Source: Rhodospirillaceae bacterium
Lineage (GTDB): Bacteria > Pseudomonadota > Gammaproteobacteria > Steroidobacterales > Rariloculaceae
Assembly (NCBI GenBank): GCA_037445815.1
Contig: JBBIJV010000002.1
Coordinates: 1-51,280, forward strand
Direction: 5' to 3'
Length of the DNA stretch: 51,280 bases
The translations under genes were made by a program, and so were the position numbers. This document shows, one piece after another, positions 2,776-8,209 of the stretch (position 1 is the stretch's first letter; each line of letters opens with the position of its first letter). A model generated the notes under the pieces. The model had not been told where the DNA came from and did no database searches. It saw only the letters and a program-made list of their open reading frames with translations.

Positions 2776-3558
2776 TCAGGCCCGCTCATCCGACACCGCT
2801 ATTATCCAACCCCCGTTGAGCGCTTGGCTGATCGCCCGCGCGACGACGTCGGCGATCCGGTCCGACGTGATCCACTCCAGCAACGCCTCGCATACGTTTT
2901 CGAGCCGCCGCTCAAGTCCGAGCTCGCGCAACGCCAAAAACGTCTCGTGAGTCACTTCACTGACGCGCGGGCTCTCGCGTACACGCCAGACGACCCATCG
3001 TCGTCGCGCGGTCGAGCACAACTGCGCGAATGGTTCGTCTCGCCGCAAGGAGCGCCAGACGTCGACGGCGTTACTGCTCGTTTCCAAGAGGTGCAGCGCG
3101 GGCGACAACTCGAATTTCAAGCGAGCCCACCGCGCGGCCTCGAGGCCCTCCAATGCATCGGGCGCTACCGGTTCTGTATCGGGCCGGTCGAACACGTCGT
3201 GCACCGCCCACTCGAGCGCTGCGAGATCAGATCGGAAGAGCCCGTCTCGTTCCGCTAGCCAGCCCGCAAGCTGGTTGCCCAGATCACGCAGCGAGGGCGA
3301 GCGTGACGGATGGGCGAGGACGTATTCACCGGCGACAAGAGCGAACGAGCGTTGTCCCAGCACCGTTCGAGTCGCCGGGAAATCATGCGCGAGCGCTTTC
3401 TCGAGTCGCGTGTTGTAAGCGCTTCGATAGACGCGCAAGCGCCGGACCCTTTCAGCCGAATCCCGACCGCGGATTTGTGCGCTCAGGCTCTCTTCCTGCG
3501 CGCCGACGACGAGGTAGCGTTGAAAGCTACGCTGAAGCGACCGTAAGCGCTCGTTCAC
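2776..3558 (-). CDS. DUF2063-family protein (BufC/HvfC-like partner of MNIO enzymes)
   Basis: GTG at 3558 has GGGGAG 10 nt upstream. Translation is (M)NERLRSLQRSFQRYLVVG...RVYRSAYNTRLEKAL, typical of DUF2063. Overlaps the DUF692 gene by 32 nt. Confidence 0.75.
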   Translation of the reverse strand: MNERLRSLQRSFQRYLVVGAQEESLSAQIRGRDSAERVRRLRVYRSAYNTRLEKALAHDFPATRTVLGQRSFALVAGEYVLAHPSRSPSLRDLGNQLAGWLAERDGLFRSDLAALEWAVHDVFDRPDTEPVAPDALEGLEAARWARLKFELSPALHLLETSSNAVDVWRSLRRDEPFAQLCSTARRRWVVWRVRESPRVSEVTHETFLALRELGLERRLENVCEALLEWITSDRIADVVARAISQALNGGWIIAVSDERA

Positions 3559-4381
3559 GATCGATCGACTCCCCGGCTCGCACGCGTCCGATCTCTCGTA
3601 GCAACTCGGCCAAAGCCGGGTAGTGGTCGTCGCGCTCGAGGCATACCGGCACCGGGCCGAAAGCGCGTCTCGCTTCGGCGTAAAGCGCCCACACCGCGTC
3701 ACAGACAGGATGGTCGTGAGTGTCGATCAGCAGCGGAGCGCTGCCGCTATGGCCCGCGAGATGATGCTGGGCGACTCGTCGCGCTGGGAGCGCGCTCAGG
3801 TATTCGCTCGGATCGAAACCGTGATTTACCGCGCTCACGTGCATATTGTTGAGATCGAGCAGGATGAGGCAATCGGCCTGTTCCGCCACGCCGCGGAGGA
3901 AGGCATGTTCGGTCATGGAACCCAAAGCGAGCTCCGCGTAGCTCGATACATTCTCGATAAGGATCTGCCGCCCCAAGGTGTCTTGCACTTCGCGGATACG
4001 CGCGGCGACGTGCTCGACCACGTCTTCGGCGTATGGCAAGGGCAACAGATCATGCAGATGGACGCCGTCATGACGCGTCCAGCAGAGGTGATCCGACACC
4101 GAGACGGGATCGTAGCGATCGACGAGCTGCTTGAGCCGTGCGAGATAGTCACGGTCGAGCGGATCGGTGCCGCCCAGATTCATCGAGACCCCGTGAAAGG
4201 CGATCGGATAGTGCTCGCGTACGTCCGCGAGGACGCGCAGTGGTTTGCCGCCTTCGACCATGAAATTCTCGGTGATCACCTCGAACCAGTCGACCGGGAT
4301 CTCTCCGCGCGCCGCGGCGGCGTAGAACGGCGGGCGGAGCCCCAGCCCCAACCTCGGCGTATCTCGCGCGTTCGCGGTCAT
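3527..4381 (-). CDS. DUF692-family multinuclear non-heme iron oxidase (MNIO; MbnB/BufB-like RiPP maturase)
   Basis: Full-length 284 aa carrying family motifs LGLGLRPP, VDWFEVITENF, HGVSMNLGG, VSDHLCW, ILIENVSSY, LLDLNNMHV, HLAGH. Confidence 0.9.
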   Translation of the reverse strand: MTANARDTPRLGLGLRPPFYAAAARGEIPVDWFEVITENFMVEGGKPLRVLADVREHYPIAFHGVSMNLGGTDPLDRDYLARLKQLVDRYDPVSVSDHLCWTRHDGVHLHDLLPLPYAEDVVEHVAARIREVQDTLGRQILIENVSSYAELALGSMTEHAFLRGVAEQADCLILLDLNNMHVSAVNHGFDPSEYLSALPARRVAQHHLAGHSGSAPLLIDTHDHPVCDAVWALYAEARRAFGPVPVCLERDDHYPALAELLREIGRVRAGESIDRERALTVASA

Positions 4382-4385
4382 TGCT

Positions 4386-5000
4386 TCACGGCAGCATGTA
4401 CTCGAGGTCAGACGCTGCGGTCGGATAAACGAACTTGGCGTACTTGAGATCTCGTGCCTTCAAACCCGAGCGCATCGCGAATGCGAAAAGGTTCACCACC
4501 TCGGCCGCCTCGGGGCCCACCACGTGCGCGCCGAGCACGCGATTCTGTGCCGTTCTCCACGAGGGTCTTGAAGCCGTAGCAAGGCTCATTGACCCGAACC
4601 GCCGTGTACCACTGCGGGACCTTGTCGTGCTTGACCTCGAAGTCCAATCCCGCCGCGCTCGCCTCGGCCTCGAGCATGCCGACCCGCGCGAGCGGAGGCA
4701 GTGTGAACACGGCGCTCGGGATGCCGTGTCGAGATCGCGGTCGAAGCGCGGCAGCGGGCGCGCGCTGCGATGCAGCACCGTGACTTCCGCGCCCGCGCGC
4801 GCCGCGATATCAGCAAACTGTAAGTCGATATAACCCCCGCCGATGACGAGGATGCGGCGCAACAACGCATCGAGCTCGAAGAGGTCATCGCTCAAAGCCA
4901 CGAGTTCCTCGCCCTCGATCGAAAGCGCGACAGGTTTGGCTCCCGCGGCGATGACAACATGGCGCACGTCGAGAACGTGATCACCGACTGGACAAGTGCG
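4386..5000 (-). pseudogene. Decayed pyridine nucleotide-disulfide oxidoreductase: N-terminally truncated, internally deleted and frameshifted
   Basis: One frame gives ...VGDHVLDVRHVVIAAGAKP...ILVIGGGYIDLQFADIAARAGAEVTVLHRSARPLPRFDRDL. A second frame gives FTLPPLARVGMLEAEASAAGLDFEVKHDKVPQWYTAVRVNEPCYGFKTLVE. The reading then returns to the first frame for VLGAHVVGPEAAEVVNLFAFAMR...LEYMLP. The FAD-binding N-terminus with the redox CxxxxC is missing, as is about 90 aa of the central domain. Confidence 0.75.
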
Positions 5001-5291
5001 CTAACCCTTCGCGGGATCGGCCGCCGACCCGGCGAGCGGCACGCCTCCCCGTATGGCGCACTCTTTTTCCGGTACGTTGAGAAACCCTTGCCCCTTGCAT
5101 TCGTTTTGTCCGGTGCACGCGTTGAAAGCGGTCGTGCAAGCGGATTGGCCTTTGCATTCATTGATGCCGAAGCAGGCGATCTCGCCGGCTTCGGCCGCCG
5201 GCGCGAATACGGCAACCGATTTGTGTAACCCATAGAACGCGGCGGCCGCGCCCGCGGCCAGCGCCCCGCCCGCCGCCACGCGCCGGGCCAT
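5001..5291 (-). other. BufA2-like Cys-rich precursor portion; possible independent CDS from internal ATG 5291
   Basis: ATG at 5291 opens a 96-aa product with a Sec-type signal (MARR + Ala/Gly-rich h-region + VFA). It has six Cys in a duplicated NECKGQ motif. No obvious Shine-Dalgarno precedes the ATG (upstream reads agcgagtggtcagcccagcgtcaat). Confidence 0.55.
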
Positions 5292-7755: not shown

Positions 7756-7788
7756 AGTGATCGAGTTCCGTTTGATGTTAATTCACGA

Positions 7789-8154
7789 TTAGAGCAATCG
7801 CGGCGCGAGCACGTTGACGGCGACCGCCGACAAAGCGAGCGCCGTGGCGATCCACAGCGCCACTTTCAGCACCATGTCCGACATCGGACTCGCGCAATAG
7901 CTGCCCTCTTCGCAGGCAACCTTCGGCTTGCGGTAAACGCGCCAGAAGCCGGCCGCGAGAAAACCAAACGTCGCCACGAGAAACACTGGTTGATAGGGTG
8001 CGAGCGCCGTCAAGTTTCCTATCCACGCGCCGCTGACGCCGAGGCTCAGCAGCAACAGCGGTCCGATGCAACACGATGAGGCGAGCACCGCACCGACGAC
8101 TCCGCCGGCTGCGAGTAGTCCGCGCTTCCCGGCTTCCTTGGCGATGGTGTCCAT
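7789..8154 (-). CDS. merT: Mercuric ion transport protein MerT
   Basis: ATG at 8154 follows AGGAGG. Translation is ...LLAAGGVVGAVLASSCCIGPLLLLSLGVSGAWIGNLTALAPYQPVF...ACEEGSYC. Strong similarity to Tn501/Tn21 MerT, including both Cys pairs. Confidence 0.9.
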   Translation of the reverse strand: MDTIAKEAGKRGLLAAGGVVGAVLASSCCIGPLLLLSLGVSGAWIGNLTALAPYQPVFLVATFGFLAAGFWRVYRKPKVACEEGSYCASPMSDMVLKVALWIATALALSAVAVNVLAPRLL

Positions 8155-8178
8155 CCGTCTTTCACCTCCTTGCAAACG

Positions 8179-8209
8179 AGGCTACAACCTATAGTGACTA
8201 TAGATGCAA
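8179..8209 (-). promoter_or_regulatory. MerR-type promoter/operator upstream of merT: TTGCAT - 19 bp spacer - TAGCCT with perfect dyad CTATAGT-N1-ACTATAG
   Basis: The minus strand reads TTGCAT CTATAGTCACTATAGGTTG TAGCCT, then about 10 nt, then AGGAGG and ATG(8154). It has the same geometry and the same GGTTGTAGsCT 3' flank as the promoter at 2660..2690. Confidence 0.65.

Follow-up and report, generated by a model that had tools for sequence, protein, structure and literature searches.

A mercury-resistance gene string with a MerC-like transporter fused to a BufA2 bufferin domain in a Rariloculaceae chromosome

On the minus strand of a 51,280-nucleotide (nt) stretch of DNA from Rhodospirillaceae bacterium (GTDB lineage Gammaproteobacteria; Steroidobacterales; Rariloculaceae; assembly GCA_037445815.1, contig JBBIJV010000002.1, positions 1 to 51,280; hereafter the window), mercury-resistance (mer) genes run into a bufferin (buf) module, which encodes a peptide made on ribosomes and then modified post-translationally (RiPP) and its maturation proteins. 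Is this module a genuine part of the mer gene string, and does it handle mercury? A preliminary description, made from the sequence alone, had proposed a periplasmic, thiophilic-metal (Hg) binding RiPP co-expressed with mer. We give a probability of roughly 0.6 to the reading that the string is a chromosomal variant of the mer operon, in which a putative MerC-type Hg(II) importer carries a C-terminal fifth transmembrane segment (TM5) and a periplasmic BufA2 domain, with BufB and BufC encoded downstream and with mercury capture as the inferred function. Loci of this kind have already been described, by bioinformatics only, and the window copy is a further, partly eroded member.

Reading from promoter P1, the minus strand carries merT, merA, a merD-like gene, a merC::bufA2 fusion, a dead gor-like oxidoreductase gene, bufB, and bufC (aa, amino acids; Cys, cysteine):

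8179–8209, minus strand: P1, MerR-type promoter before merT, TTGCAT-(19 nt)-TAGCCT
7789–8154, minus strand: merT (PF02411, 102.9 bits)
6127–7755, minus strand: merA, mercuric reductase with an NmerA domain (NF010311, 818 bits; cut-off 600)
5708–6118, minus strand: merD-like gene of the MerR family, without metal-binding Cys (best match TIGR02054 MerD, 48 bits, below the 103.65 cut-off)
5001–5711, minus strand: merC::bufA2 fusion, 236 aa (PF03203, 27.6 bits, and NF050166, 75.5 bits)
4386–4988, minus strand: gor-like pseudogene, class-I pyridine-nucleotide-disulphide oxidoreductase (tblastn against the intact protein of the related locus L005)
3527–4381, minus strand: bufB, intact, MNIO (DUF692) bufferin maturase (NF050167, 356.3 bits; cut-off 310)
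2776–3558, minus strand: bufC, DUF2063 partner, GTG start (PF09836, 68 bits)

Profile hidden Markov model (HMM) searches return MerT, MerA, a joined MerC-like and BufA2 protein, BufB, and DUF2063, and all the genes named in the preliminary description lie where it had placed them. Its spacings also hold on re-reading the sequence: 33 nt between merT and merA, 8 nt between merA and merD, a GTGA overlap between merD and the fusion, 4 nt from the pseudogene stop to the bufB ATG, and a 32-nt overlap of bufB and bufC. Between the fusion precursor and bufB lie 615 nt of untranslated pseudogene. The merT start is the ATG at 8154, preceded by AAGGAGG (the mechanical open reading frame, or ORF, starts at a TTG at 8175). 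MerT has its CC motif and scores 100.7 bits with the NCBIfam MerT equivalog, below the cut-off of 150. MerA retains the NmerA motif GMTCARC, the redox motif CVNVGC, and a C-terminal CC (...SCCAA). The merD-like gene occupies the same position, 3' of merA, in relatives L007, L014, and L024.

The two maturation proteins also look sound. BufB matches Protein Data Bank (PDB) entry 3bww (E 2e-48) and keeps its HG, SDH, EN, DxNN, HxAGH, DTH, and ERD motifs, and the metal-ligand motifs are likewise conserved against MbnB structures (E 1e-14). Relatives align with BufC over 95–99% of the BufC length. Its 260 aa are typical of DUF2063+RRE fusions; the NCBIfam HvfC model gives 35 bits (below the 142 cut-off), and a PDB sequence search with BufC returned no match. 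All five genes (merT, merA, the fusion, bufB, and bufC) are full-length, and their catalytic and metal-binding motifs are intact.

The fusion joins a MerC-like domain of four transmembrane (TM) segments with a CC motif (aa 1–126), through a basic cytoplasmic linker, to TM5 (aa ~141–168) and a six-Cys BufA2 domain (aa ~175–223). Residues 10–116 match PF03203 exactly at its cut-off (27.6 bits), and NCBIfam MerC equivalogs score 21–25 bits against cut-offs of 140–170; the N-terminal domain is best called MerC-like. Homologues that consist of MerC only (47–58% identity) sit after merA in Methylomonas and related genomes. At the other end, residues 150–223 cover positions 3–76 of the 79 in the BufA2 profile NF050166 (75.5 bits; cut-off 60). 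Across 33 aligned homologues, none of the six Buf2 cysteines (C180, C186, C192, C199, C205, and C218) varies, nor do the CC pair in TM1 and several residues of the fifth hydrophobic segment. The spacing of the six cysteines, C-x5-C-x5-C-x6-C-x5-C-x12-C, is identical to that of the stand-alone BufA2 proteins of L076–L085.

Stand-alone BufA2 proteins have a cleavable signal peptide where the fusion has TM5, and on this correspondence TM5 is a former Sec signal peptide. A bufferin precursor is a small protein with an N-terminal, cleavable Sec or lipoprotein signal peptide; in the fusion, the equivalent segment is internal, after the four-TM MerC domain, and the A-x-A site ahead of the core is not conserved across homologues. 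AlphaFold2 (AF2) predicts helices at residues 2–39, 43–67, 71–92, 98–126, and 141–168, then a poorly predicted Cys-rich domain (mean predicted local distance difference test score, pLDDT, 68). Loops 60–73 and 117–146 hold 5 and 6 lysine or arginine residues, and loops 40–44 and 92–99 hold none. This positive-inside distribution, together with the AF2 helices, implies a predicted N-in, C-out topology that would place the Buf2 domain in the periplasm.

It is ruled out that bufA2 is a separate gene after merC, or that the fusion is an assembly or frameshift artefact: at least 120 full-length fusion clusters exist, the two domains are read through without an intervening stop, and homologues do not conserve the internal Met142. 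Most family members also carry a Cys pair in the cytoplasmic linker (consensus AAC-T--CE-P; alignment columns ~145–160, fusion residues 120–135) that recalls the C-terminal Cys pair of MerC. Both of these cysteines have been lost in the window protein and in its closest relative, P0002.

The fusion is widespread. A search of 5.8 billion proteins gave 254 matches, and in the best 120 of the 254 clusters, which were examined, query coverage is 96–100% (all but one 99–100%) at 59–76% identity. Among GTDB species, each represented by one genome, a scan yielded 374 relatives and 50 loci with a full-length fusion, distributed among Woeseiaceae, Thiohalobacter, Thiogranum, Competibacterales, Gallionella, Methylococcales, Acidiferrobacterales, Zetaproteobacteria, Aminobacter, and Tistlia. 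We surveyed the neighborhoods of these loci by tblastn with the window proteins, within 4 kb, counting only loci with enough flanking sequence. An upstream merA on the same strand was found at 34 of 44 loci and a downstream bufB at 16 of 40. Both genes flank the fusion at 13 of 36 loci, and a further 13 of the 36 have merA without bufB. The gene order merA-fusion-(gor)-bufB-bufC is recurrent. In relatives such as L015 and L016, the gaps in merA-fusion-bufB-bufC are 0–50 nt. L015 reads merR<>merT-merP-merA-(44 nt)-fusion-(41 nt)-bufB-bufC, and in L016 the gap between fusion and bufB is 0 nt. None of 10 stand-alone BufA2-bufB-bufC loci has merA within 10 kb.

In a neighbor-joining tree, the BufBs encoded beside fusions form one clade, apart from those beside stand-alone BufA2, and the window BufB groups with those of Woeseiaceae. 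Taken together, the similarities of BufB, MerT, and MerR indicate Woeseiaceae-like Gammaproteobacteria. From this comparison, we regard the fusion as a conserved family and the buf module as a genuine, conserved part of the mer gene string. The preliminary description had allowed that the juxtaposition might be explained solely by the deletion scar between the fusion and bufB. This is ruled out by the synteny in many species and by L086, the closest relative (76% identity), where merA and the fusion are followed by an intact gor N-terminus. Intact gor-like genes hold the same slot, between fusion and bufB, in L005, L017, L028, and L055; the scar thus represents decay of a conserved neighbor and not the cause of the juxtaposition. 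With its recurrent synteny and its own BufB clade, the buf module is tied to the mer genes and is no by-product of the scar.

The remnant itself matches only residues 126–212, 345–403, and 402–454 of the intact 454-aa L005 relative, with one frameshift. It lacks the N-terminal 125 aa, which hold the flavin (FAD) site and the redox CxxxxC, as well as aa 213–344. Because of this partial coverage and the frameshift, we consider the gene dead, and the two deletions and frameshift bear out the "dead oxidoreductase" of the preliminary description. Intact forms score best against glutathione reductase models, below the cut-offs of these models.

At 11 of 50 species loci, we also observed this 454-aa flavoprotein disulphide reductase in the mer-bufferin island, at varied positions. 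Besides the slot before bufB, it is found after bufC in L014, L027, and L032 and ahead of the fusion in L026, L049, and L051, and it occurs in the islands of L057, L058, and L060. It reaches the cut-off of no NCBIfam equivalog and lacks an NmerA domain; the L005 copy lies at 8820–10184. Within the window, a second relic at 180–441 (minus strand), just downstream of a MerR-family gene, is 80% identical to 4344–4605 and comprises the last ~70 gor-like codons, the junction, and the first ~40 nt of bufB. This points to a second gor-bufB copy that once existed and has been deleted from either side.

What drives the gene string? The 19-nt spacer of P1 contains a perfect dyad, CTATAGT-C-ACTATAG (8203–8189), that is unique in the window (0.06 expected by chance). 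Near-identical elements lie between merT and a divergent merR in L010, L015, L027, L031, L019, and L047; that of L010 is TTGCATCTGTAGCTACTACAGGTTGTAGGGT, and those of L015 and L027 are TTGACTCTGTAGTCACTACAGCC...TATAGT. The regulators divergent from these promoters carry three Cys. On these sequence grounds, P1 is a genuine MerR-type promoter, as the preliminary description had it, but it is not the only one on this strand. Two further sites resemble it:

8816–8846, minus strand: P2, MerR-type promoter-like site before merP-merE, TTGAAG-ctgtagcagctcgagcttt-TATCTT, 19-nt spacer, imperfect dyad
2660–2690, minus strand: P3, second perfect MerR-type promoter, TTGACC-(19 nt)-TAGGCT, dyad CCTGGAG-N4-CTCCAGG

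A regular-expression and dyad scan of positions 1–9600 recovered P1 and P3 as the only perfect MerR-type promoters. P2 resembles the Tistlia L061 merT promoter, GCTGTAGC-C-GCTACAGC. P3 lies just 3' of bufC and heads the next transcription unit; the same promoter precedes the homologue of ORF2241 in L027. The P1 unit thus most plausibly runs from merT to bufC. The preliminary description saw no promoter or terminator between these genes, and our scans agree: consensus scans revealed no internal sigma-70 promoter between the genes, and terminator-like sites are at chance level (7 found, 7.6 expected). Such a picture fits read-through without proving it. A hairpin at 2764–2741 was rejected as a terminator after bufC, being no better than shuffled sequences (z = -0.63).

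The sole metal-sensor-type MerR protein in the window, encoded at 893–489, has two Cys and lacks an equivalent of Cys82, judged against a Tn501 MerR reference sequence. It is unlikely to activate P1, since it belongs to the P3-headed unit with its different dyad, is 32–35% identical to the partners of P1-type promoters, and lacks the Cys82 equivalent. Among fusion mer operons generally, we observed two operator classes, each with a divergent three-Cys MerR-family gene. A CTGTAG-N3-CTACAG class comprises L010, L015, L019, L027, L031, and L047, and a classical TCCGTAC-N4-GTACGGA class comprises L007, L022, L028, L044, L049, and L060. The Woeseiaceae metagenome-assembled genome OFTM327 has two complete mer-fusion-bufB-bufC loci on different contigs (L014 and L015), one with a classical operator and the other with a CTGTAG-type operator.

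The remaining genes of the region lie upstream and downstream of the P1 unit:

8479–8769, minus strand: merP, periplasmic Hg-binding protein (TIGR02052, 100.9 bits, above the 92.55 cut-off)
8240–8467, minus strand: merE-like gene, small membrane protein with a CPCHLP motif (NF010310, 71 bits, just under the cut-off of 80)
489–2621, minus strand: downstream metal module (Pfam and NCBIfam matches), with the following five members
2241–2621, minus strand: CC-motif membrane protein (ORF2241)
1931–2224, minus strand: periplasmic HMA protein
~1950–1189, minus strand: outer-membrane protein
890–1192, minus strand: thioredoxin-like protein
~893–489, minus strand: MerR-family regulator

The window is chromosomal, containing gyrA, aroA, and rpsA. 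GC content at third codon positions (GC3) is 0.75–0.80 in genes of the mer/buf region and 0.85–0.93 in neighboring core genes (window 1–14000 versus 14400–51280). This lower GC3 suggests a horizontally acquired metal-resistance island, beside a TonB-dependent receptor and a histidine kinase. The merP and merE-like genes form their own small unit behind the imperfect operator P2, upstream of the merT promoter, without the merR and merT that usually accompany them; this unit looks like a rearranged fragment of a second mer operon. The "complete" Hg(II) uptake and reduction pathway behind one promoter was therefore overstated in the preliminary description: merP belongs to a separate upstream unit, a cognate merR is missing, and the 615-nt pseudogene precedes bufB. 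The dyad of P3 is ZntR/CadR-like, and the set of genes in the downstream module co-occurs with fusion islands in L007, L014, L027, and L049, with both module and P3 promoter present in the Woeseiaceae locus L027. Elsewhere in the window, a PIN/VapC-like toxin gene (9078–9539, minus strand) is split over the overlapping frames 9239–9532 and 9078–9539. Judged by eye, it is probably a frameshifted pseudogene; Pfam gave no match for the upstream part. Degenerate repeats of 9–15 nt at 38247–38373 encode a low-complexity stretch rich in glycine and tyrosine (GGYGGG-like).

How might such a gene string work? Transcription from P1 would respond to Hg, covering merT-merA-merD-merC::bufA2 and then passing through the 615 nt of pseudogene to bufB-bufC. 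BufB and BufC would convert the four central cysteines to 5-thiooxazoles before the domain crosses the membrane, as in Caulobacter Buf1 and Buf2. The Buf2 domain, tethered or possibly cleaved, could then capture periplasmic Hg(II) and hand it to the CC pair in TM1 of MerC or MerT, from where it would pass to MerA. In this scheme, the domain would serve either to buffer Hg in the periplasm or as an analogue of MerP linked in cis. That the bufferin domain serves a thiophilic metal, in this case Hg, is a reasonable inference, because synteny with mer genes is conserved and the mer-linked BufBs form their own clade. The central proposal of the preliminary description thus keeps its mer linkage, which is genuine, and its suggested metal, but not its novelty. 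More tentatively, and with somewhat less than even odds in our estimate, the MNIO/RRE pair may place thiooxazoles on the extracytoplasmic domain of a polytopic transporter, creating a membrane-tethered Hg(II) "antenna" that feeds MerC in cis, with the gor-like protein as a hitherto overlooked accessory at the 11 of 50 loci that have it.

Several points weigh against a mercury-handling bufferin expressed from P1. No three-Cys MerR of the type that partners P1 is encoded anywhere in the 51-kb window, and MerR-type promoters with a 19-nt spacer are weak without their activator. The pseudogene between precursor and bufB could cause Rho-dependent polarity. The scheme also does not explain how a cytoplasmic MNIO could act on the final domain of a polytopic membrane protein that is inserted co-translationally, and the AF2 model of the Buf2 part is weak (pLDDT below 50 at residues 186–207). 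Of the 40 fusion loci with sufficient flank, 24 have no adjacent bufB, so that the domain may often act without being modified. Furthermore, the characterized bufferins are Cu-induced and Cu-binding (PMC11626156), and we found no paper in the literature with experiments on Hg and bufferins.

The missing bufB genes raise an alternative that we consider unlikely, namely that the six-Cys domain is an unmodified thiolate or disulphide Hg binder, a MerP substitute fused to MerC, and that BufB and BufC are optional or passengers and perhaps unexpressed here. In MerP, MerT, and MerC, simple pairs of Cys are enough to bind Hg(II). The loci that have merA upstream and no bufB (13 of 36) fit this alternative, as does the Sulfuricaulis locus L007, where merRTPBA-HD-merD-fusion is followed by unrelated genes; in the window, the pseudogene parts bufB from its precursor. 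Genomes without an adjacent bufB may, however, encode one elsewhere. In the window, BufB and BufC are intact and have retained every catalytic motif, around each Cys the BufA2 HMM signature recognized by the maturase is preserved, and the mer-linked BufB clade has diversified along with the fusions, which argues for sustained selection on the partnership.

A different metal is less probable still. If the buf module served Cu, or Au, Cd, or another thiophilic metal, its adjacency to mer would reflect clustering on a multi-metal resistance island. The island does hold a second metal module, with a ZntR/CadR-like operator and a two-Cys MerR-family regulator, and the CTATAG-type dyad of P1 is closer to the operators of PbrR and CadR than to the Tn501 mer operator. 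Against this, the three Cys that typify Hg(II)-MerR are present in the regulators beside P1-type promoters, and both operator classes, including the canonical TCCGTAC-N4-GTACGGA, drive fusion operons. The precursor is fused to a MerC-type transporter and follows directly 3' of merA in 34 of 44 species, often with gaps below 50 nt, while stand-alone BufA2 loci never have merA nearby (0 of 10). In favor of Cu, all experimental bufferin data concern this metal, and gig operons respond to Au, Cd, and Cu (PMC11626156). We give a similarly small chance to the idea that the window locus is a relic in decay and has ceased to work as a unit. The copy is partly eroded: its gor-like neighbor is dead, with two deletions and a frameshift, a second gor/bufB junction persists only as the relic at 180–441, the linker Cys pair of most homologues is gone, no cognate merR is encoded nearby, merP-merE has been displaced upstream behind an imperfect operator, and a neighboring PIN-type gene seems frameshifted. 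Nevertheless, the P1 dyad is perfect, the five principal genes are full-length with intact motifs, merR could be encoded elsewhere in the genome, and the gor-like gene is dispensable, since most relatives that look functional lack it.

Should the Buf2 domain be modified and bind Hg(II), mercury resistance in sulfur-cycling and sediment Proteobacteria that are widespread (Woeseiaceae, Thiohalobacter, Thiogranum, Acidiferrobacterales, Methylococcales, and Gallionella) would include a step of RiPP chemistry that is missing from classical mer models. The metal range of bufferins would extend beyond copper, and a mechanistic question would follow, namely by what route a cytoplasmic MNIO modifies one domain of a membrane protein that is inserted co-translationally. 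A tethered antenna would be without precedent both as a RiPP-type modification of a bona fide membrane transporter and as a mercury-specific bufferin, although the general idea has been aired in one sentence of a 2025 genome-mining paper (PMC12452194). With the concept already in the literature, the value of the window is incremental. The compact operons L015 and L016 would be better experimental models than its partly eroded copy.

The closest known systems are the MerC/Buf1 and MerC/Buf2 chimaeras already listed, in Hg-related clusters, by Leprevost et al. 2025 (Microb Genom, PMC12452194). Their MerC/Buf2 example, OOO01496.1 from Chromatiales bacterium USCg_Taylor, is the L031 protein of our survey and is 62% identical to the window fusion over all 236 residues. 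The statement in the preliminary description that such a system had not been described thus fails; indeed, the NCBI pipeline already labels relatives "BufA2 family periplasmic bufferin-type metallophore". The published fusions were termed "a few instances", whereas our survey finds at least 120 clusters and 50 species, making the family far larger than reported. These chimaeras share with the window protein the MerC domain, the fifth TM segment, and the periplasmic six-Cys Buf2, and in L031 the mer context is merR<>merT-merP-merA...fusion. The window copy differs in having a gor-like pseudogene before bufB, no adjacent merR, a displaced merP, and no linker Cys pair.

Among characterized bufferins are Buf1 and Buf2 of Caulobacter, periplasmic RiPPs that are induced by Cu (Leprevost et al. 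2024, PMC11626156). There, BufB and BufC convert the central cysteines to 5-thiooxazoles, and CysI and CysVI likely form a disulphide (PMC11626156). The Caulobacter vibrioides buf2ABC cluster resembles the window module in its six-Cys BufA2 core (NF050166), MNIO BufB, and DUF2063 partner. It also has no doxX (PMC11626156). The absence of DoxX that the preliminary description reported is no distinctive trait, since this founding cluster lacks the gene as well, and Buf2 clusters normally do without it. In contrast to the window, buf2ABC encodes a small soluble precursor with a cleavable Sec signal peptide, is under SigF/NrsF control, and is Cu-induced and Cu-protective. The window core is instead the C-terminal domain of a polytopic MerC-like protein, encoded behind a MerR-type promoter in a mer operon.

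With the Tn21/Tn501 mer operons (merR-o/p-merTP(C)AD), the window shares merT, a merA with NmerA and C-terminal CC, a merD-like gene after merA, and a 19-nt-spacer promoter with a dyad. It departs from them in its operator (CTATAGT-N-ACTATAG, not TCCGTAC-N4-GTACGGA), in lacking a divergent merR, and in not having merP between merT and merA. Furthermore, its merC-like gene comes after merD, matches at the Pfam threshold, and is fused to BufA2.

MerTP fusions (NCBIfam NF033556) and MerP offer a functional analogy only: a periplasmic, Cys-containing Hg(II)-binding domain that acts in cis or trans beside a CC-motif importer. The fold of MerP is of the HMA ferredoxin-like type with GMTCxxC, and MerP is not modified post-translationally, whereas Buf2 has no sequence relationship to it and should, by prediction, be modified by enzymes. 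In methanobactin biosynthesis (MbnA/MbnB/MbnC), as predicted here, an MNIO and its partner turn precursor cysteines into heterocycles with S and N donors that chelate soft metals, and methanobactin has been reported to bind Hg(II). Methanobactin, however, is a small, secreted chalkophore with oxazolone-thioamide groups that serves Cu acquisition, whereas the product of the window would be a protein domain attached to a transporter, presumably for detoxification.

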